Source of the DNA: Ignavibacteria bacterium
GTDB lineage: Bacteria; Bacteroidota; Ignavibacteria; Kapaibacteriales; UBA2268
DNA: 64,000 nucleotides
Assembly (NCBI GenBank): GCA_026416955.1
Contig: JAOAEE010000008.1
Location: 18,195-82,194, forward strand
Direction of reading: 5' to 3'
In this document: positions 24,537-34,864 of the stretch, in pieces
Layout: each line of letters starts with the position of its first letter
Position numbering within the stretch: the first letter of the stretch is position 1
Made by a program: the position numbers and the translations under genes
Notes under the pieces: model-generated
The model's database searches: none
The model's input: only the letters and a program-made list of their open reading frames with translations
What the model was told of the DNA's origin: nothing

Positions 24537-24582
24537 AGAAAAAATAAGTTTTTTAACTTTGTATTTGTTTTTAAGGTTTGTA

Positions 24583-25545
24583 ATGAGAAAGATTACTCTT
24601 TTTGTTGTTAGCATTTTATTATTTTCGTGTGGTAATTCAAAAGTAAGCAACATTATCGAAGCAAGTGGTATCGTCGAAGCCACTGAGGTAATGGTAAGCT
24701 CAAAAGTTGCATCCCAAGTATTAAAAATACTTGTTCAAGAGGGAACAAAAGTAAAAGTGGGTGATACCTTGGCAATTTTGGATAATGAATACTATCTTTT
24801 CCAGTACGAGCAAGCTATAGCATTAGAAAAATCTGCAAAAGCAAGTCTGGAGCTTCTTCTTAAAGGAGCAAGAAATGAGGATATTAATCTTGCAAAAGAA
24901 TCTTTAAAGCAAGCTGAAGAAAATTTTCAAATTGCTAAAGCAAACTTTGACAGGTTTCAAAAGTTGAGGGCAACTCATTCAGTTAGTGAAAAACAATTTG
25001 AAGAAGTTGAATTAAACTACAAACTTGCACAATCACGTTTAAACCAAGCCCAAGAAAATTTGAAGAAAATAGAAAAGTTTTTTAGGAAAGAAGAAATAGA
25101 GCAAGGAGAGGCTAATTTACGAAAAGCAGCTTCAAATGTCAATTTGGCTCGAAAATACCTTTCCGATTGCATTGTTATATCTCCGATGGATGGGGTAGTT
25201 TTACAAAAGTATGTTGAAGTAGGGGAAAATGTTACCCCGGGATTAATATTATTTAAGATTGCTAAACTCGATACAATGGAGATGGTTGTCTATATCCCAG
25301 AAAAAACTCTTGGTAAAATTAATGTTGGTCAGAAAGTCGATATAACCTGTGATTCTTATCCTGATAAAACCTATAAAGGTAGGGTTGTATTTATTTCTGA
25401 AGAAGCGGAGTTTACACCCAAAAATATTCAAACAAAAGACGAAAGAGTAAAATTAGTTTATGGAGTAAAAATAAAAATTCCGAATCCAAATTTCGAGTTA
25501 AAGTCTGGAATGCCTGCAGATGCGAAGATTTTTCTTTCAAATTAA
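24583..25545 (+). CDS. HlyD-family periplasmic adaptor (YbhG-like) lipoprotein
   Basis: Lipobox LFSCG, ASGIVEATEV, long coiled coil, AEFTPKNIQTKDERVKLVY. Start revised to ATG 24583; TAACTTTG at 24554-24561. Confidence 0.88.
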   Translation: MRKITLFVVSILLFSCGNSKVSNIIEASGIVEATEVMVSSKVASQVLKILVQEGTKVKVGDTLAILDNEYYLFQYEQAIALEKSAKASLELLLKGARNEDINLAKESLKQAEENFQIAKANFDRFQKLRATHSVSEKQFEEVELNYKLAQSRLNQAQENLKKIEKFFRKEEIEQGEANLRKAASNVNLARKYLSDCIVISPMDGVVLQKYVEVGENVTPGLILFKIAKLDTMEMVVYIPEKTLGKINVGQKVDITCDSYPDKTYKGRVVFISEEAEFTPKNIQTKDERVKLVYGVKIKIPNPNFELKSGMPADAKIFLSN

Positions 25546-25553
25546 CCGCGAAT

Positions 25554-26462
25554 ATGAATTACCCAATAGAAGTTGAGGGTTTAACTAAAAAATTTCAAGA
25601 TTTGACAGCAATTAATAATTTGTCATTTTATGTTAAAAGAGGCGAAATATTTGGAATAGTCGGTCCCGACGGGAGCGGAAAATCTACATTAATCAAATTG
25701 ATTGCTGGTATTTTGAAACCAGACGAAGGGGAAATAAGATTTTTTGATATTAATTCTTTCAAAGAAACAAAGAGGATAAAATCTCGAATTGGATACCTAT
25801 CCCAAAATTTTTCCCATTATGTCGACCTTACCGTTGAGGAGAATTTAGAATTTTTTGCCGAGGTACATAGAGTTAAAAACTTTAAGGAGAGATTTGAGTT
25901 TCTTTTAGACTTTTCAAAGTTAAGGCCTTTTCGGAAAACATTAATTTCTAATTTATCTGGTGGGATGAAACAGAAACTTGCTCTGATTTCTTCCTTAATT
26001 TACGACCCAGAGCTCCTACTTTTAGATGAACCTACGACAGGAGTCGACCCAATTTCTCGTAGAGAATTTTGGCTCTTGCTTAATCAACTTGTTTCCAAAG
26101 GTAAAACAATTATTTTTGCTACACCTTACCTTGATGAAGCAGAAAGGTTTCATAAAGTTTTGATGTTAAATAAAGGGGAAATGCTTTGTTGCGACACACC
26201 GGAAAAAATTATTTCATCTTTTGAATATCTTGTTGCCGAGGTTGTTTGTTCGAACTTAGAGTTGTCGAAAGAACTTTTAAGTGAATTCGGAGATGTACAA
26301 ATTTTTGGAGATAGGTTAAATCTTATTTCTTCTAAAAGTAATCCAAATTTTTTAGAAAAGGCAAAAGATAAACTTTTAAAAAATGGAATTGACTTAATTA
26401 GTTGTGAGTTAATTAATCCCAGTCTTGAAAATGTATTTTTCTATTTACTAAAAAATAAATAA
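25554..26462 (+). CDS. ABC transporter ATP-binding protein (YbhF-like, first NBD)
   Basis: GPDGSGKST, LSGGMKQK, LLLDEPTTGVDP. Confidence 0.93.
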   Translation: MNYPIEVEGLTKKFQDLTAINNLSFYVKRGEIFGIVGPDGSGKSTLIKLIAGILKPDEGEIRFFDINSFKETKRIKSRIGYLSQNFSHYVDLTVEENLEFFAEVHRVKNFKERFEFLLDFSKLRPFRKTLISNLSGGMKQKLALISSLIYDPELLLLDEPTTGVDPISRREFWLLLNQLVSKGKTIIFATPYLDEAERFHKVLMLNKGEMLCCDTPEKIISSFEYLVAEVVCSNLELSKELLSEFGDVQIFGDRLNLISSKSNPNFLEKAKDKLLKNGIDLISCELINPSLENVFFYLLKNK

Positions 26463-26465
26463 TGT

Positions 26466-27395
26466 ATGCCTGCAATTTTTGCAAAAGGAATTACAAAAAA
26501 GTTTGGTAGCTTTGTTGCTGTAGATAATGTTGACCTAATTGTTGAAGAAGGGGAAGTATTTGGGTTCCTTGGTGCTAATGGGGCCGGGAAAACAACAACA
26601 ATCAAAATGTTGATTGGCTTGATTAAACCAACCTCTGGTTCTATTATTGTTTCTGGTATTGATGTTGTACAAAACCCACAAAAGGTTAAGGAAATTATTG
26701 GATATATGTCACAAAAATTCTCGCTTTATGATGATTTAACAGTTGAAGAGAATATTAATTTTTTTGGTGGCATTTATGGAATTGGTGTTACAACCTTAAA
26801 AGAAATAAAAGAAGACTTACTGACGAAGTTCAACCTATTGAACGAACGTAGAAAACTAACTAAGGATATTCCTTTGGGTTTGAAACAAAGACTTGCATTG
26901 GGTATTGCATTAATGCATAGACCCAAAATTGTTTTTCTTGACGAACCAACATCTGGAGCCGACCCAATATCTCGGAGAAATTTTTGGGAAATAATTCGGA
27001 ATTTGAAAAGACAAGGTGTAACGGTTTTTGTTACTACTCATTATCTTGAAGAAGCAGAATATTGTTCGAAAATTGCTTTGATTAATTCTGGGAGAATTAT
27101 TGCATATGGAACCCCGACCGACCTAAAAAAACTTGCTTTTAATTATCCATTGTTTGAAGTAGATTTTGGGGGGATAGAAAGCAATATTGGTGTCTTGAAT
27201 AAAGTTTGTGATTATGGTGAATTTTTTATTTATGGAAGAAAGTTGCACTTTCTTTCTAAGTACTTAATTACTACAAGTGAGTTAGGAATTAAAATGAAAA
27301 GCGATTTTGGAATTGCTCCTAAAACTTTACGAAGAATAATTCCTACTTTAGATGATGTTTTTTTTCAATTAGTCCAAAAAAGCAACAATGATTGA
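26466..27395 (+). CDS. ABC transporter ATP-binding protein (second NBD)
   Basis: GANGAGKTT, degenerate signature IPLGLKQR, FLDEPTSGADP, TTHY. Confidence 0.93.
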   Translation: MPAIFAKGITKKFGSFVAVDNVDLIVEEGEVFGFLGANGAGKTTTIKMLIGLIKPTSGSIIVSGIDVVQNPQKVKEIIGYMSQKFSLYDDLTVEENINFFGGIYGIGVTTLKEIKEDLLTKFNLLNERRKLTKDIPLGLKQRLALGIALMHRPKIVFLDEPTSGADPISRRNFWEIIRNLKRQGVTVFVTTHYLEEAEYCSKIALINSGRIIAYGTPTDLKKLAFNYPLFEVDFGGIESNIGVLNKVCDYGEFFIYGRKLHFLSKYLITTSELGIKMKSDFGIAPKTLRRIIPTLDDVFFQLVQKSNND

Positions 27396-28530
27396 TTTTA
27401 TTGTAATCAAAGCAATAACGAAAAAAGAGATAAGACAATTAAGAAGAGAAAAAAGAATGCTTTTGATAATTTTCATTTTTCCTTTGTTTCTTCTTGTGAT
27501 TTTTGGTTATGCAATTAATCTTGATGTTAAACATATTCAGCTTGCAGTTTTGGATTTTGATAGAACAAGAGAAACAAGAACTATTATTAACTCATTAATA
27601 TCATCTGAATATTTTGATTTGGTTGGATATATTAATAACTATAAGGAAGCAGATAAGATTTTAAATACAAACAAAGCGCAGTTAGTAATTGTATTCCCCA
27701 AAGGTTTTACAAAGGATTTTTTTAATAAAAATTCAGCAAAGATACAATTTTTCATTGATGGTATAAATGGAAATACTTCAAATATTATTTATAATTATTC
27801 GAAATTGGCAGCAAATTTTTTTACCTTTAAGCGACTACAAGAAATTGCCCATTTATCCTCCAAAAAACCAATTTATACTGTTCAATTGGAGCCTAGGTTT
27901 TGGTACAATCCAGAGTTAAAGTCGAATATTTTTCTTGTTCCGGGCCTAATTGGTATAATCATTATTCTTACCTCCGCAATAACTGTGTCCTTATCAATCG
28001 TTAAGGAGAAAGAGAGGAATACAATTGAGCAAATATTGATTTCTCCAATTTCACCTTTAGAATTTATTGTTGGAAAATCTTTTCCATATATGGCACTTGC
28101 TTTTATTAATTCTATTCTTGTCGTAGTTTTTGGTCATATTATTTTTGGAGTTCCTGTAAAAGGGAACCTATTGTTATTAACTATTGCTTTAATTTTTTAT
28201 ATTTATTCTTCTTCGAGTATAGGAATTTTTGTTTCCATTGTTGCAAACAACCAGCTTGTTGCGTTCCTTATGGTTGTAATAATTTCAGTTCTACCATCAA
28301 TGTTGCTTTCTGGTTTTATTTTTCCAATTGAAAGTATGCCGTTCGTCATTCAATTGATTACCAACCTAACCCCTGCAAAATTCTTTCTTTCAATTATCCG
28401 AGGTTTGTTGTTGAAGGATGTAGGCTTGTCAATTCTTTTACTAGATTACATCTATTTGATTTGTTATGGAACAATTTTTATTGTTTTGTCTTTTGTAGTT
28501 TACAAAAGGGGCTTAAGAATCTCATTATGA
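27388..28530 (+). CDS. ABC-2 type permease (YbhS-like)
   Basis: KEIRQLRRE, WYNPEL, FLVPGLIG, SIVKEKERNTIEQ, LLSGFIFPIESMP. Confidence 0.9.
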   Translation: MIDFIVIKAITKKEIRQLRREKRMLLIIFIFPLFLLVIFGYAINLDVKHIQLAVLDFDRTRETRTIINSLISSEYFDLVGYINNYKEADKILNTNKAQLVIVFPKGFTKDFFNKNSAKIQFFIDGINGNTSNIIYNYSKLAANFFTFKRLQEIAHLSSKKPIYTVQLEPRFWYNPELKSNIFLVPGLIGIIIILTSAITVSLSIVKEKERNTIEQILISPISPLEFIVGKSFPYMALAFINSILVVVFGHIIFGVPVKGNLLLLTIALIFYIYSSSSIGIFVSIVANNQLVAFLMVVIISVLPSMLLSGFIFPIESMPFVIQLITNLTPAKFFLSIIRGLLLKDVGLSILLLDYIYLICYGTIFIVLSFVVYKRGLRISL

Positions 28531-29660
28531 GAAAGGTTATTAGTTTTGTTATTAAAGAACTCATTCAATTTCGTCGCGACAAACGAATGATTGGGGTTGT
28601 GTTAATATCTCCAATTATTCAATTGATTTTACTTGGTTATGCTGCAAATATGGATGTTAAAGTAATCGATGTAACAATTCTAGATTTTGATAATACCTCC
28701 ACGAGTAGAAACTTTGTGCAATCTTTAATTTCGAACCAAAATTTTAGAATAAACCGAAAGGTGGATGATTACCGGGATTTGGAAGAAGATATTAAATCTG
28801 GAAAATCAATTGTTGGAATTGTTTTTCCAAAAAATTTTGAAACCGACTTATATTTAGGAAAGGTTCCAAAAATCCAAGTCTTTTTAGATGGCTCTAACGG
28901 AAACAAAACTTCTATTGTTTTTGGTTATCTTGCTAATGCTACTTCTCATTTTAATAGTAAGATATTATCCTCTTTTTTGAGAAAAGACGTCAAAAGTTTT
29001 GCTTCGAGTGGGAACATTATTACACCAGAAATTCGCGTTTGGTACAACCCTGAGATGGTTACCAGAAAATTCCTTTTGCCCGGAATTGTTGCTTTGTTGT
29101 TGTTGATTATTGCCGTGCCATTGACTTCAATGGCAATTGTTAAAGAGAAAGAGAAAGGGACTATTGAGCAGATATTGATTTCCCCTTTAAAACCTTACGA
29201 AATAATTGCTGGTAAATTAATTCCTTTCTTAATAGTAGGATTGGTCGATTTTACTTTTGTTTTACTGGTTATGCGGTTTTGGTTTCAAATCCAGATACAA
29301 GGAAGTATTTTCTTATTATACTTTACAGCTTTTTTGTTTACCGCATCGAATTTAGGAATTGGGCTTTTAATTTCAACTTTTTCGAAAACACAACAGCAGG
29401 CAATGATTGTTTCGGTATTTGCAGTGATTGTTCCGATGATTTATTTGTCGGGGTTCGTGTTTCCAATAGAAAATATGCCAAAAATTATTCAATTATTAAC
29501 CCATTTTATACCATTGAAATATTTTTTAATAATCCTTCGAGGTATAGTTTTGAAAGGTATTGGTATTGCAGAATTGTATTTCGATATATTAGTTTTGGTT
29601 TGTTTCGGTTTAGCCTTTTTTGTTTTGAGCTCGATGAAATTTAGAAGTATTCTCAGATAA
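28527..29660 (+). CDS. ABC-2 type permease (YbhR-like)
   Basis: KELIQFRRD, VWYNPE, AIVKEKEKGTIEQ, LSGFVFPIENMP. Start revised to ATG 28527. Confidence 0.9.
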   Translation: MRKVISFVIKELIQFRRDKRMIGVVLISPIIQLILLGYAANMDVKVIDVTILDFDNTSTSRNFVQSLISNQNFRINRKVDDYRDLEEDIKSGKSIVGIVFPKNFETDLYLGKVPKIQVFLDGSNGNKTSIVFGYLANATSHFNSKILSSFLRKDVKSFASSGNIITPEIRVWYNPEMVTRKFLLPGIVALLLLIIAVPLTSMAIVKEKEKGTIEQILISPLKPYEIIAGKLIPFLIVGLVDFTFVLLVMRFWFQIQIQGSIFLLYFTAFLFTASNLGIGLLISTFSKTQQQAMIVSVFAVIVPMIYLSGFVFPIENMPKIIQLLTHFIPLKYFLIILRGIVLKGIGIAELYFDILVLVCFGLAFFVLSSMKFRSILR

Positions 29661-29699
29661 GTAAAACTATAAAGAAAGAGGAAATAAAAAAAATTTTAG

Positions 29700-30059
29700 T
29701 GGAGATGGCGGGAATCGAACCCGCGTCCGAAGTGTTTCCGCTGCAGTGCCTACATACTTAGTCGTTCTTTAAATTTCGCTTTTACGCGAACCGAACGACA
29801 GGTTTCGTAAAAGCTATCGGTTGTGTTTGTCGCAAAAGGACCAACCGAAAAATCCTTTTGCCAGCCCATCTACTTGCGACACCCTTTTGGAAACCGATGG
29901 GCAAATTTCCAAAAGGATGGGCTACCGTTATGTATTAGGCAGCCAAAGCATAATTGCTTTCGGCATTTTTTTTCTGCCGTTTGGATTTACGTGCTGCAAC
30001 GGCAAAGCACGGTATGCCACTGTCAGCTTCCAACACCCCGTCGAATCCAATTCATCCCC
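29700..30059 (-). ncRNA. ssrA: tmRNA
   Basis: 5' GGGGATGAATTGGATTCGACGGGG and 3' GACGCGGGTTCGATTCCCGCCATCTCCA with a G3.U acceptor pair. Internal tag frame GCC GAA AGC AAT TAT GCT TTG GCT GCC TAA (AESNYALAA*) at 29964-29935. Confidence 0.97.
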
Positions 30060-30130: not shown

Positions 30131-31924
30131 ATGGAAGATACTAAGTTAAAATTTAAATTGTTTATTTTTATCTCGATATTGTTTTGTGCAGTTTTTATTG
30201 GAAGACTAGCCTATCTTCAGATTTTAAAGGGAAGTGTTTATAAATTAAAATCCGAGACACAAGCAATTAAGACACAAATAGTATATCCATTTAGAGGAAA
30301 TATTTACGATAGAGACGGAAATCTTTTAGTTTACAATGTTCCATCATTTTCTTTACAAATTTTTACAGAAAATTTTAGGCTCGACAGGGCAAATCTGCTT
30401 GCTAAAATTCTGGGAACAGATAGTTTGGGATTATATAATATTATTTTTCAAAATATTCTTAATTACCGTTATGGAGATGTAAAAATACTTCGAGACCTTG
30501 ATTACGAAACTGTGCAGAAAATTCAAGAGTATTCTTATCTTTTACCTGGGGTCGAAATTATTGTTGAATCAAAAAGAATGTATAATTTAAGTGCTAAGAT
30601 GTCTCATATTATAGGATACATTCAAGAAGTATCGCAAGATGAAATCAAACAAGAGACTTATTACAATTTGGGTGATTTTATCGGAAAGTCTGGAATTGAA
30701 AAATATTATGAAATGGAACTACGGGGCCAAAAAGGGCGGAGATATGTTGGAATTTTAGGAGCAGGGTACAAAACCGAAAAGTTTAACGAGGGTAAATCCG
30801 ATGTTCCAGTAAAAAATGGAGATGATTTAGTACTTTCAATAGATTTAAAACTTCAAGCCAAGGCCGAGGAACTTTTGGAAGGGAAAAGAGGCGCTTGCGT
30901 TGCAATTGACCCAAATAATGGAGAAATTTTAGCACTGGTGAGCAAACCCGATTATGATATAACTTTATTAAGTGGGAAAGATTTTAAAAACAATTATCTT
31001 CAACTAATAAATCAAAAAGACAAACCATTGATAAATAGAGCAATTCAATCTCGTTATCCTCCTGGTTCTACTTGGAAACCATTGATGGCTATCGCTGGTT
31101 TAGAGGAAGGTATAATAACTGAGAATTCGACTTTCTATTGTGGGGGTCAATTAGTTTTTGGGGATAGACCCTTTGGTTGCCACGGTGCTCACGGAAATGT
31201 GAATGTTTATCGAGCTATTCAGGCAAGTTGTAACGTTTTCTTTTATCAACTAGCTTTGAAGTTGCAATTAGAAAGAATATCCAAATGGGCAAAGGAATTT
31301 GGTTTTGGTAAGAGAACTGGAATAGATCTTCCATTTGAAAATGCTGGGGTATTTCCAACTTTGGATTATGTTAATAAGAAATTTGGGAACTTAGAAAAAG
31401 CCCCCAAAGGTTTGCTTCTTAATTACGGAATTGGACAAGGGGAAATCTCTGTTACTCCAATACAAATGGCAGTTTATGTTGCAGCAATTGCAAATGGAGG
31501 TAGATTATTTACCCCACATATCGTTCGTTCAATAAAAAATAGTCTTTTAAACCAAACTACTTTGATGAATGTTGAGAGCCGAAAAATTAACATTAATCCA
31601 AGAACTTTGGAGATCGTTAAAAAAGCTATGTTTGATGTAGTTAACTTGCCCGGTGGAACTGCTTTTGGAATAAGAATTCCCGGGTTGGAAGTTTGCGGTA
31701 AGACTGGGACAGCCCAGGCTTCCCAGCCCGGTCAACGAGACCATTCCTGGTTCGTTTGTTTTGCACCAAAAGAAAATCCTAAAATAGCCTTGGTTGTAAT
31801 AGTAGAAAATGCTGGGTTTGGAGCAGCAGTTGCAGCACCAATTGCAAGAGAGTTGTTAAAGGATTTTTTTGGTATTAAGGAACCATTGGTGAAAGTTGAT
31901 TCACTAAATATTTTGCCAGACTGA
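30131..31924 (+). CDS. mrdA: Penicillin-binding protein 2 (class B PBP)
   Basis: N-terminal TM, RGNIYDRDG, YPPGSTWK (SxxK), SCN, KTGTAQ. Start revised from 29954, which would overlap tmRNA. Confidence 0.95.
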   Translation: MEDTKLKFKLFIFISILFCAVFIGRLAYLQILKGSVYKLKSETQAIKTQIVYPFRGNIYDRDGNLLVYNVPSFSLQIFTENFRLDRANLLAKILGTDSLGLYNIIFQNILNYRYGDVKILRDLDYETVQKIQEYSYLLPGVEIIVESKRMYNLSAKMSHIIGYIQEVSQDEIKQETYYNLGDFIGKSGIEKYYEMELRGQKGRRYVGILGAGYKTEKFNEGKSDVPVKNGDDLVLSIDLKLQAKAEELLEGKRGACVAIDPNNGEILALVSKPDYDITLLSGKDFKNNYLQLINQKDKPLINRAIQSRYPPGSTWKPLMAIAGLEEGIITENSTFYCGGQLVFGDRPFGCHGAHGNVNVYRAIQASCNVFFYQLALKLQLERISKWAKEFGFGKRTGIDLPFENAGVFPTLDYVNKKFGNLEKAPKGLLLNYGIGQGEISVTPIQMAVYVAAIANGGRLFTPHIVRSIKNSLLNQTTLMNVESRKININPRTLEIVKKAMFDVVNLPGGTAFGIRIPGLEVCGKTGTAQASQPGQRDHSWFVCFAPKENPKIALVVIVENAGFGAAVAAPIARELLKDFFGIKEPLVKVDSLNILPD

Positions 31925-31999: not shown

Positions 32000-34261
32000 A
32001 TGAGAAAAATTTTATTATTCTTTTCGCTTTTTCTAGCTTTTATTTTATTTTACTCTTGTAGCGAGAGCACTAATCAAACTCTTGAAGAAAACAACATAAG
32101 TGGTGTTCTTGTCGATGAGCAGGATGTTCCAATTCCATTTGCAACAGTTTATGTAGTGCGTGTTTCCGAAGGTAAAACTAATGTTCTGGTAAAAGAGGAA
32201 GTTGTTGCAGTTGATACTACAGACGAGGATGGTAATTTTAGTTTCAAAAGTTTACCTACACCATTAGGTAATTTAAAAATTAGGGTAGTTCACCAAGATT
32301 TTAAAGTTTTTGAAGATTTTTTGCTTGCCCTTTTAGAGAAACAACCAAAAAATAAGTTAAGATTTAGGATCTTGCATAATAATGATTGCTGCGGAAAAAT
32401 CATCATTCGAACTCTTGGTCCCGATTCCACTACTTTAGGTGGTGTTGAAGTACGATTGAATAGAGGAAGGGATTTAGTTAGAAAAACGAAATCAAATGAT
32501 AATGGAATTGTAGTTTTTGAAAATGTTTGTGCTGGTGGATATTGGGTCCGTATTTCCAAGGAAGGTTATCAAGTAATCGAGCGCGAATTTAACCTTGGTA
32601 ATTGTGATACCTTAACACTTACTTTCGTTCTTAGTAGGCGGGAAGTAGACACTTGTTGCAGAGGGGTTATTGGAGTTGAGGTAAAAAATCAAAATGGCGA
32701 GGTTTTAAATGGCTCCGTGGTTAAATTGAGAAAGAATGGTATTTTATTAACAACGCAAACTGTAAGGGAAAACCAACCTGTTTATTTCCGTGAGTTGTGC
32801 CCTGGTACTTATAGCTTGCTAATTCTGAAGGAAGGATATAAAACTGTTGAGAGGAATGTTTCAATAGAATGTAACGATTCTATCTTTGTTTCTGTTCAAA
32901 TGGAAATTGATACTTGCTGTAATAGTGTTCTGAGAGTAATAATAAAAAATACCGAAGGTCAGCGACTTCCGCAAGCCAAAGTATCAATTTGGAAATCTGG
33001 TGTTAGATTAGGATATTATTATACGAACGATGAGGGTGTTGTTGTTTTCCGTGAACTATGTAAAGGGAAGTATGGTTTTGATGTTGAAAAAGAAGGGTTC
33101 AAACGAATAGAATTTTCGGTTGAGATTGGTTGCGGCGAGGAAAAAGAAATAACAAAAGTTTTGGAAGCAGTGCAACAGGATACTTGTTGCAATGGAAGCA
33201 TAAAAGTTTATGTAAAAAATTCTGAAGAACGACCAATTAATCAAGCAATAGTGGCAATATGGAAAAACGACAAGAAATTGGGTTATTATTCCACAAACGA
33301 TAGTGGGTACGTTATTTTCCGTGAATTATGTGCTGGAAGGTATGTTTTAACAATTAGCAAAGATGGATTCAAAACCCAAGAGTTTGTTGTTGAACTAGGT
33401 TGCAACGAGGTAAAAGAATTTACAAAGATTTTACAAAGAGTTGATAATGATACCTGTTGCAAAGGAGTTGTAATTATCCGTGTTAAAGATAGGAGTAACG
33501 AATCAAATATTAACGAAGCTACTGTAAAGATGTGGAAAAATGGTCAAGTAGTTAAATCTGGAACTACAGCAGAAGGGAAAGTCGTTTTTAGAGAAATTTG
33601 TCCGGGTGAGTATAGTTTTTCAATTTTAAAGGATACATACAAAAGTATTGAATTTTCTTTGAGATTTGAATGTAATGACACAATTGAAATTACCAAGTTT
33701 CTTGAGAAAGAAAATGTCGATACTTGTTGCAAAGGTAGAATAATTGTTTATGTCAAAGACTCATCAAATAACGAGCCATTAGCTAACACAGAAGTAAGAC
33801 TATGGAAGGGCTCCCAAAAGATTTCAGTAAAATACTCTAATGAAAGTGGAAAAGTTGTTTTCGAAAACCTTTGCCCTGGAACATATCAAATTTCGATGTC
33901 ACGCTCGGAATACAAGGGACTTGAATTTAGTTTTGAACTTGATTGCAATCAAACAAGAGAATTCACAAAATATTTATCTAGGAAATCGGATACTTGCTGT
34001 ACAGCAAGGTTGAAGTTGAAAATTATAGATGATTCAACTGGGAGTGCAATTTCTGGTGCAAGGGTTTTAGTTAGATATAACCAAACTGTCGTTGCCGACC
34101 CGCAATCTAATTCAGAAGGTTGGGCTGTTGCACAAAATTTGTGTGCTCCTAGAACATATTCGATTAGGGTTTCTGCCGAAGGCTATGAAGTAAGGGAATT
34201 TACTATTACATTTCAAGAGTGTAATACGATTCAAGAGACTATTCGATTAAGAAGGCGGTAA
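32000..34261 (+). CDS. Cys-rich repeat lipoprotein: one carboxypeptidase-regulatory-like domain plus seven ~90-aa four-cysteine beta-sandwich repeats
   Basis: Lipobox FYSC. Repeats start at NDCC (32381) and DTCC (32648, 32909, 33179, 33449, 33719, 33989), each also containing xLC[PAK]G.Y and [EGD]CN-like Cys positions. Confidence 0.85.
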   Translation: MRKILLFFSLFLAFILFYSCSESTNQTLEENNISGVLVDEQDVPIPFATVYVVRVSEGKTNVLVKEEVVAVDTTDEDGNFSFKSLPTPLGNLKIRVVHQDFKVFEDFLLALLEKQPKNKLRFRILHNNDCCGKIIIRTLGPDSTTLGGVEVRLNRGRDLVRKTKSNDNGIVVFENVCAGGYWVRISKEGYQVIEREFNLGNCDTLTLTFVLSRREVDTCCRGVIGVEVKNQNGEVLNGSVVKLRKNGILLTTQTVRENQPVYFRELCPGTYSLLILKEGYKTVERNVSIECNDSIFVSVQMEIDTCCNSVLRVIIKNTEGQRLPQAKVSIWKSGVRLGYYYTNDEGVVVFRELCKGKYGFDVEKEGFKRIEFSVEIGCGEEKEITKVLEAVQQDTCCNGSIKVYVKNSEERPINQAIVAIWKNDKKLGYYSTNDSGYVIFRELCAGRYVLTISKDGFKTQEFVVELGCNEVKEFTKILQRVDNDTCCKGVVIIRVKDRSNESNINEATVKMWKNGQVVKSGTTAEGKVVFREICPGEYSFSILKDTYKSIEFSLRFECNDTIEITKFLEKENVDTCCKGRIIVYVKDSSNNEPLANTEVRLWKGSQKISVKYSNESGKVVFENLCPGTYQISMSRSEYKGLEFSFELDCNQTREFTKYLSRKSDTCCTARLKLKIIDDSTGSAISGARVLVRYNQTVVADPQSNSEGWAVAQNLCAPRTYSIRVSAEGYEVREFTITFQECNTIQETIRLRRR

Positions 34262-34279
34262 GATAAACTATTATATTCT

Positions 34280-34312
34280 GCAAGGGAGAAAATTTTCTCC
34301 CTTGCTTTTTTT
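34280..34312 (+). terminator. Rho-independent terminator after the Cys-rich lipoprotein
   Basis: GCAAGGGAGAAAATTTTCTCCCTTGC perfect inverted repeat followed by T7. Confidence 0.85.
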
Positions 34313-34339: not shown

Positions 34340-34864
34340 ATGAGGTTGAAATCTTTTAAAACATTTTTTTTAGTGCTACTTTTCATATTTGTTTCTTGCG
34401 AAGTTTCAGATGTAGATAAAACCGCCAAATTAGTCACTATTAGCGAACTTTTTAGTTTAGCCCCCGGGTTCGAATGGTTCCCTTATGAGTTTAACAAATA
34501 TTTACCCGATTCCACGGTTTCCAAACAAATTGATTCATTGTGGAAATTGAAAAGATATAGATTTATTCTATTTGTGAATCCAAGTTGCAATTGCGAAGGC
34601 ACCCAAGTAGTTTTTCCAATGATTGCAAAATGCTTAAAATCTGGGAATGTTCCAGATTCAGCAATAATTATTTATTCTATGTTGAATACTTCTTATACTC
34701 ACCCTTATGTGGAAAAATTCAAAGTCAGATCTCTTCCTTCGTGTTTCACTGAAATTGATTCTTCCAAATACTTTTCAGTTGTTGATACATTTGATTTGTA
34801 TAAATTGAAGTTCCCTGGCAAGTTTCAAATGGAGCATATCATTTTATTGAGCCTTCAAAAGTAA
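34340..34864 (+). CDS. Putative thioredoxin-like lipoprotein
   Basis: Lipobox FVSC; WF..F..Y.PD segment followed by a beta strand into FVNPSCNCEGTQVVFP and a later VRSLPS cis-Pro-like motif, resembling Bacteroidota thioredoxin-family proteins. Confidence 0.55.
   Translation: MRLKSFKTFFLVLLFIFVSCEVSDVDKTAKLVTISELFSLAPGFEWFPYEFNKYLPDSTVSKQIDSLWKLKRYRFILFVNPSCNCEGTQVVFPMIAKCLKSGNVPDSAIIIYSMLNTSYTHPYVEKFKVRSLPSCFTEIDSSKYFSVVDTFDLYKLKFPGKFQMEHIILLSLQK

Follow-up and report, generated by a model that had tools for sequence, protein, structure and literature searches.

The stretch of DNA analysed here (the window) comprises 64,000 nucleotides from an Ignavibacteria bacterium (assembly GCA_026416955.1, contig JAOAEE010000008.1, positions 18,195 to 82,194 of the forward strand). 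It carries a gene for a repeat lipoprotein, P0001, read from the list of open reading frames and the translation as an intact frame of 753 amino acids at 32000–34261 on the plus strand. P0001 belongs to an uncharacterized family that is confined to Kapabacteria/Ignavibacteria. In the translation, the N-terminus, MRKILLFFSLFLAFILFYSC, is a signal peptide closing on the lipobox cysteine Cys20 (residues 1–20, ending ILFYS-C20; 32000–32059, plus strand). Nearest the lipid anchor lies a CarboxypepD_reg domain that contains no cysteine (residues ~31–127; 32090–32380, plus strand); its best Pfam stretch covers residues 33–103, and AlphaFold2 (AF2) places its strands within residues 31–123.

Seven cysteine-bearing repeats follow on the same strand. 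With boundaries cut two residues ahead of each CC dipeptide (residues 130, 219, 306, 396, 486, 576 and 666), the units are 87–90 residues long and their starts are spaced by 267, 261 and then 270 nt. Repeat 1 (residues 128–216; 32381–32647) opens with NDCC and is the conserved first Cys repeat, of a type termed R1. Repeat 2 (217–303; 32648–32908), which opens with DTCC, is followed by repeats 3 (304–393; 32909–33178), 4 (394–483; 33179–33448), 5 (484–573; 33449–33718) and 6 (574–663; 33719–33988), and the array ends with repeat 7 (664–753; 33989–34258), which runs from DTCCTA to ECNTIQETIRL and represents a distinct, conserved C-terminal subtype. Each repeat has four cysteines: the CC pair (C1 and C2), one in the motif (L/V/I)C(A/P/K)(G/P) (C3), and one about 24 residues farther on (C4). 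A first-pass annotation of this DNA had given repeat starts at 32381, 32648, 32909, 33179, 33449, 33719 and 33989, which match exactly, as do its spacings. Its count of four cysteines per repeat, or 28 plus the lipobox cysteine, was likewise reproduced on recounting (29 in all), while the DTCC junction that it assigned to every repeat holds for six and fails for the first.

The Pfam model PF13620 matched P0001 in eight stretches (E = 1.5e-65; 217.9 bits against a gathering cut-off of 32.3). Pfam detected neither a catalytic nor a TonB-barrel domain, as the first-pass annotation had also stated, and matches to other sandwich families were fold-level echoes. NCBIfam gave nothing above threshold. 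The model for the type A sorting domain of the type IX secretion system, TIGR04183, scored below threshold (13.7 bits, cut-off 23), and at residues 142–192 rather than at the C-terminus; the latter ends in TIQETIRLRRR, and an LPx[TS]G sortase signal is absent from the protein. The repetition exists at the protein level only, with units 24–53% identical and no tandem repeat detected in the DNA by Tandem Repeats Finder, so that the duplications are old. The gene is single-copy within the host genome.

Cysteine pairing and predicted fold of the repeats

The family's domain instances (1038, from 171 representative proteins) were aligned to a hidden Markov model (HMM) of the repeat. CC, C3 and C4 were all present in 970 of the 1038 instances. 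A single N-terminal cysteine accompanied C3 only in 31 others and C4 only in 36, and no instance had an odd core set, the lone apparent exception (P0173) having four cysteines at shifted positions. As signals of cysteine pairing in natural variation go, this one is unusually clear. At the level of whole mature proteins the cysteine count was even in 119 of 152; the 33 with an odd count are an upper bound, the pattern used mis-assigning some signal-peptide cysteines.

Mean-field direct-coupling analysis (DCA) of 1033 distinct repeats (effective number 889) placed column pairs 5–76, 4–51 (C2–C3), 3–51, 3–75 (C1–C4) and 6–52 among the strongest couplings outside gap columns. These couplings and the paired losses together suggest that the CC segment contacts both distal cysteine segments, and support two disulfides within the domain. 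The first CC has only a cysteine-free domain ahead of it, and the last repeat retains both C3 and C4, so the partners are expected to belong to one unit. Natural variation therefore indicates that each cysteine of the CC pair needs exactly one distal partner, so that each repeat would hold two intradomain disulfides. This backs the stapling within repeats that the first-pass annotation proposed. Its further suggestion of disulfides between repeats is ruled out by the cysteine-free domain ahead of the first CC, by the distal cysteines kept in the last repeat, and by the loss of partners within one and the same unit. A vicinal bond between the two CC cysteines, combined with a C3–C4 bond, is ruled out by the pattern of co-loss.

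An AF2 model of P0001, made from a 28-sequence alignment, consisted of eight seven-stranded β-sandwiches, with a mean predicted local distance difference test score (pLDDT) of 84.5 and most 10-residue blocks within domains at ~83–93. In each repeat the CC is placed two residues before strand A, C3 (of the LCxG motif) directly after strand D, at the D–E turn, and C4 in the F–G turn, that is, in the last hairpin. The connections between strands are short, so the strands should alternate up and down, which should bring all four cysteines to the module's N-terminal end.

Foldseek searches with the full model yielded nothing more specific than strings of CnaB, pilin and macroglobulin sandwiches, with template modelling (TM) scores of at most 0.13 and no functional lead; a sequence search of the PDB with two repeats gave no match. 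The best solved matches to the repeat profile were all generic domains (NOMO2, the SdrD B repeats and SlaB), with pilins also among the closest. No cysteine stood at the quartet positions in the alignments shown for NOMO2, SdrD and SlaB.

Profile column 11, on strand A, and column 44, on strand D, held an additional cysteine pair at equal frequency (7 instances each). P0041 (residues 308–665) and P0070 have such a third pair per repeat, in strand A (KVCLKN) and strand D (ENGCITF), which is consistent with A and D lying side by side in a single sheet.

Distribution and variation of the family

A word-seeded search recovered 72 proteins that share the periodic CC pattern, every one with a lipobox start and every one from metagenome-assembled genomes of Kapabacteria/Ignavibacteria. 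Their annotations were 'hypothetical', 'carboxypeptidase regulatory-like', or misnomers derived from the fold. Exactly four cysteines stood at matching positions in 432 of their 456 units. The first-pass annotation had recommended searching with a repeat HMM for variation in copy number; a profile built from the seven repeats in the window picked out about 100 further members among 1.84 billion representatives, bringing the family to 171 representatives with 4–12 domains each. Outside the repeats none of these has a segment longer than 40 residues except in the N-terminal region, so that no member appears to contain any other kind of domain. The same search also matched 31 giant proteins (1.5–7.8 thousand residues). 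These are ordinary arrays of 14–72 cysteine-poor CarboxypepD_reg stretches with no periodic CC and form a separate class, examples being P0093 (6305 residues) and P0181 (7796 residues).

The number of internal repeats varies between members, and at the ends of the chain it is subtype identity that is conserved. The final repeat was most similar to repeat 7 of P0001 in 133 of 165 homologues, and R1 was the best match for the first Cys repeat in 99 of 165 proteins and for the second in 45. Residue identity is no higher in the terminal domains than in the internal domains: every one is ~40% identical to its counterpart in P0001.

Of 151 genomes sampled from the class, 40 carry the gene; these carriers represent 23 of 84 genera. 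The gene occurs in the host's own taxonomic family and is missing from the three sister families of the order. Searches of curated models (Pfam, NCBIfam) and of the literature produced no description of the family, in line with the first-pass annotation, which had recognized none. The CarboxypepD_reg modules themselves are known: every module of P0001 exceeds the gathering score and is predicted to be a seven-stranded sandwich, as in other PF13620/PF13715 repeat proteins. What is new, judged from sequence, is the fixed CC-C-C quartet in a lineage-restricted family of lipoproteins. Ordinary CarboxypepD_reg arrays are cysteine-poor, whereas this family has CC-C-C in 93% of its modules, in lipoproteins of 4–12 domains to which nothing else is attached. 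An ordinary and normally cysteine-free bacterial β-sandwich would thus have acquired a fixed double staple, in a clean lineage-restricted family.

Possible functions of the lipoprotein

The lack of any enzymatic domain points to a structural function in spacing, tethering or adhesion. We favor, as the probable reading, a lipid-anchored tether of the cell envelope, made of a chain of disulfide-locked β-sandwiches that varies in length and has conserved ends. Covalent locking, conserved ends, variable internal modules and the lack of other domains all lead to this reading. In seven of the eight modules, both CC cysteines ahead of strand A would each bond one distal cysteine of their own module. 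Disulfides from profile columns 3 and 4 to columns 51 and 75 would enclose about 72 of 90 residues in a covalent loop, and a module locked in this way should withstand mechanical unfolding, heat and proteases. Load would pass from linker to CC, through the disulfide to strand G and on to the next linker, which would leave the module almost inextensible and strand A unable to peel off, a logic like that of the isopeptide locks in Gram-positive pilins. The internal modules would serve as a spacer of variable length, bounded by specialized ends, namely the first Cys repeat and the last. Eight domains would span ~25–30 nm, estimated from a typical sandwich length of 3.5–4 nm. The unusually clear pairing signal makes the family a convenient model for disulfide hardening of repeat proteins, in which disulfides would do what isopeptide locks do in Gram-positive pili.

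Several known stalk and spacer proteins resemble P0001 at the level of the domain. NOMO is a string of transthyretin-like/Ig-like domains in the lumen of the endoplasmic reticulum, where it has been described as a spacer. Of the solved structures, it matches the repeat profile best (9c7v_B, E = 6e-9) and is likewise a membrane-anchored series of beads of one domain type with no catalytic part; it differs in being eukaryotic, in having a C-terminal transmembrane anchor, and in having a non-cysteine residue opposite the LCxG cysteine in the HMMER alignment, so the likeness is one of domains only. The Cna/SdrD B-repeats and the SpaA/CnaB pilins (6fwv, 4oq1, 1d2p, 3kpt, 10ps), which were top Foldseek or profile matches, are tandem sandwich stalks locked by isopeptide bonds or by Ca2+. 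Pilin modules are covalently cross-linked by isopeptide bonds and are hence inextensible under load. The Gram-positive pilins use Lys-Asn isopeptides and LPxTG, as against the proposed paired disulfides from a vicinal CC and the N-terminal lipid of this family of diderms. In the Sulfolobus S-layer the stalk protein SlaB (8qox_B) has a sandwich domain whose alignment covers the entire repeat (E = 7.6e-4), and SlaB too is a membrane-anchored stalk, one that keeps a surface layer at a distance; it is archaeal, with a C-terminal transmembrane anchor, a coiled coil and no cysteine quartet. No gene for an S-layer partner was seen adjoining the repeat gene. The CC-C-C double staple, the N-terminal lipid, the lack of a 'head' domain and the restriction to Kapabacteria/Ignavibacteria set this family apart from all of these proteins.

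Two sets of observations weigh against the tether. The first concerns the model and the pairing. The linkers fall below pLDDT 50 at residues 216–218, 393–396, 482–485 and 573–575, and the predicted TM score of the whole chain is 0.32, so the chain may flex; the domains are well defined and their mutual arrangement is not, and the rigidity that the first-pass annotation attributed to the filament is thus not demonstrated. The connectivity also conflicts, DCA favoring C2–C3 with C1–C4 and some R1-type variants reading as C1–C3 with C2–C4, and the oxidation state that we infer for the cysteines comes from covariation only.

The second set concerns the machinery for making disulfides. In the host genome (G000; 78 contigs, 98% complete) DsbA (PF01323), Thioredoxin_4 (PF13462), DsbB (PF02600) and VKOR (PF07884) were all undetectable, in searches that each gave matches in control genomes. 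DsbB occurred in 0 of the 151 sampled genomes and VKOR in 27; among the 40 carriers of the repeat gene, 7 had VKOR and none DsbB. A census of the host's exported proteins gave 160 with odd and 123 with even cysteine counts, hence no preference for even numbers, although the census is weak evidence, with genes and signal peptides called by our own heuristics. The result is a puzzle, namely a protein apparently needing 14 disulfides in genomes with no detectable DsbA, DsbB or VKOR. The first-pass annotation had mentioned neither this absence nor the recurring position of the gene next to mrdA described below. The bonds may arise extracellularly or spontaneously, an unrecognized catalyst may form them, or the cysteines may be less oxidized than the covariation suggests. 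A heme-copper oxidase gene in the host genome (C7:11139–12470) implies that the organism probably meets oxygen, which makes oxic conditions plausible. The host encodes two other cysteine-rich predicted exported proteins (C60:22–2277, minus strand, and C54:144736–147240, plus strand), with 28 and 24 cysteines (3–4% Cys) and two CC each; a search of the genome against itself showed them to be unrelated to the repeat family.

Every full-length homologue has a lipobox start (150 family members with lipobox). In Bacteroidota, the export signal of lipoproteins is an acidic cluster right after the lipidated cysteine. P0001 reads C-SESTNQ from that residue; 70% of family members have D or E at +3, and at least one D or E stands at +2 to +5 in 131 of 150, compared with 39 of 71 predicted lipoproteins of the host genome. 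Two or more occur in 49 of 150, the export rule not being established for this lineage. The acidity after the lipobox is therefore compatible with the Bacteroidota signal, and weaker than it. We lean slightly towards cell-surface display over a periplasmic location; the surface location claimed in the first-pass annotation is thus compatible with these residues and is not established by them.

The repeat junctions may also be modified. An extended O-glycosylation motif, (D)(S/T)(A/I/L/V/M/T/S/G/F/C), has been reported for P. gingivalis and T. forsythia (PMC8729774), and the junction tripeptide DTC fits it, as the first-pass annotation had noted. P0001 has 14 such sequons as potential sites, six of them DTC at repeat junctions, and across the family 62% of the 1037 junctions read D[ST]CC.

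The gene's position may point to another role. The repeat gene starts 75 nt downstream of mrdA, which encodes penicillin-binding protein 2 (PBP2) on the same strand (30131–31924; TIGR03423 pbp2_mrdA, 584 bits against a cut-off of 455; Pfam PBP_dimer and Transpeptidase). No terminator lies between the two genes, and a strong, intrinsic terminator-like hairpin with an 11-bp stem, 6 G-C pairs and a T-run follows 19 nt past the stop codon of the repeat gene (34280–34305, plus strand); a two-gene transcript is therefore likely, and mrdA and the repeat gene are probably co-transcribed. The same adjacency, with gaps of 65–110 nt, recurs in L001 and in three genomes of the host's family (G007, G031 and G061), and it does so in those three despite a repeat protein identity of ~30% and different other flanking genes. 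P0001 could accordingly be a periplasmic strut or regulator of the elongation machinery, anchored in one membrane and reaching PBP2 or the peptidoglycan, functionally like the Lpo lipoproteins, which reach PBPs from the outer membrane. A span of ~25–30 nm would be of periplasmic scale, and mrdA is not beside a SEDS (shape, elongation, division and sporulation) gene, such genes being on contigs C10 and C68. LpoA and LpoB, PBP activators of the outer membrane, are similarly lipoproteins tied to a peptidoglycan synthase, the tie here being gene adjacency in one taxonomic family, but they share neither sequence nor fold with P0001 and act on class A PBPs.

We nevertheless judge such a strut to be unlikely. 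The adjacency is absent from two genera of the host's own family (G117 and G142) and from every other family with the repeat gene, and outside the host's family that gene has no recurrent neighbor. An array of 4–12 domains is hard to square with a periplasm of fixed width, and a genome that lacks Dsb and VKOR would be an awkward home for a disulfide-rich periplasmic protein. Eleven genomes of the same order have no copy, which argues that PBP2 does not generally require the protein. Within that one family, the adjacency is still a real hint of a link to cell-wall growth.

Less probable still is that the cysteines are mostly reduced in vivo and act as a thiol buffer, as a redox sensor or in thiol-mediated attachment instead of as permanent staples. 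The absence of Dsb and VKOR and the lack of an even-cysteine preference among exported proteins would suit this idea, as would the gene immediately past the terminator in the host genus. That gene (34340–34864, plus strand) encodes a 174-residue lipoprotein with invariant NPSCNC and LPxC motifs in its alignment, the former being a CxC where thioredoxins carry CxxC. Neither Pfam nor NCBIfam has a model for it. Its AF2 model has a β-α-β core (mean pLDDT 82), and Foldseek matches were weak (E at least 0.014), but nearly all of the top ones were thioredoxin-fold oxidoreductases, making a thioredoxin-like fold probable. Strict pairwise co-loss stands against the reduced state; it implies that unpaired cysteines are selected against, as is typical of structural disulfides. 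Nor does the 174-residue lipoprotein appear to be a dedicated partner. All 17 genomes sampled from the order carry it, and 11 of these lack the repeat gene. In most genomes the two genes are unlinked, with separate contigs for them in five other genomes of the same family, and at this locus the terminator stands between them. A candidate role, consistent with its predicted fold, is that of a general thiol-disulfide enzyme in an order without Dsb proteins.

A bolder combination, on which we would place little weight, joins these two leads: a PBP2-co-expressed, covalently locked strut that sets a length and whose 14 disulfides are made by a route other than DsbA, DsbB or VKOR. The order-wide family of CxC thioredoxin-like lipoproteins would then be the candidate oxidase or isomerase. 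If true, this would amount to a new disulfide-forming system in Dsb-less, aerobic-capable relatives of the Bacteroidota; unless this or the mrdA lead holds, the practical impact of the family is modest.

Very improbable is a metal site (Zn, Cu or Fe-S) formed by the four cysteines, as in the multi-site binder or store envisaged in the first-pass annotation: four invariant cysteines clustered at one end of each sandwich, the host's lack of known oxidative-folding machinery and one distant homologue adjoining a znuABC-like operon speak for it, but 67 domains persist on one N-terminal and one distal cysteine in two complementary flavors, which is a pairwise and not a tetrahedral arrangement, the family lacks CxxC and His ligands, some members have the extra pair on neighboring strands A and D, and the ZnuABC context is a single occurrence. 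Adjacent cysteines in a CC seldom chelate one ion.

Genes flanking mrdA

In the window mrdA adjoins neither rodA nor mreBCD and sits between a transfer-messenger RNA (tmRNA) gene and the repeat gene. The tmRNA gene (29699–30059, minus strand; tag peptide AESNYALAA) immediately precedes mrdA and is read in the opposite direction, and upstream of it in turn lies an operon of an HlyD-like gene, two ABC ATPase genes and two ABC-2 permease genes (24559–29660, plus strand). The host genome as a whole encodes three penicillin-binding proteins with transpeptidase domains and two SEDS proteins (C10:37375–38433 and C68:68815–69966), all on separate contigs.

In the three other genomes of the host's family an overlapping, operon-like gene pair precedes mrdA (L023:4173–8646 in G007, L025:3922–8365 in G031 and L029:9770–14171 in G061). 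The pair in G007 encodes a chain-length determinant-like protein (Wzz) and an O-antigen ligase-like protein (Wzy_C), unusual company for PBP2; G031 and G061 have open reading frames of matching size and order in its place.

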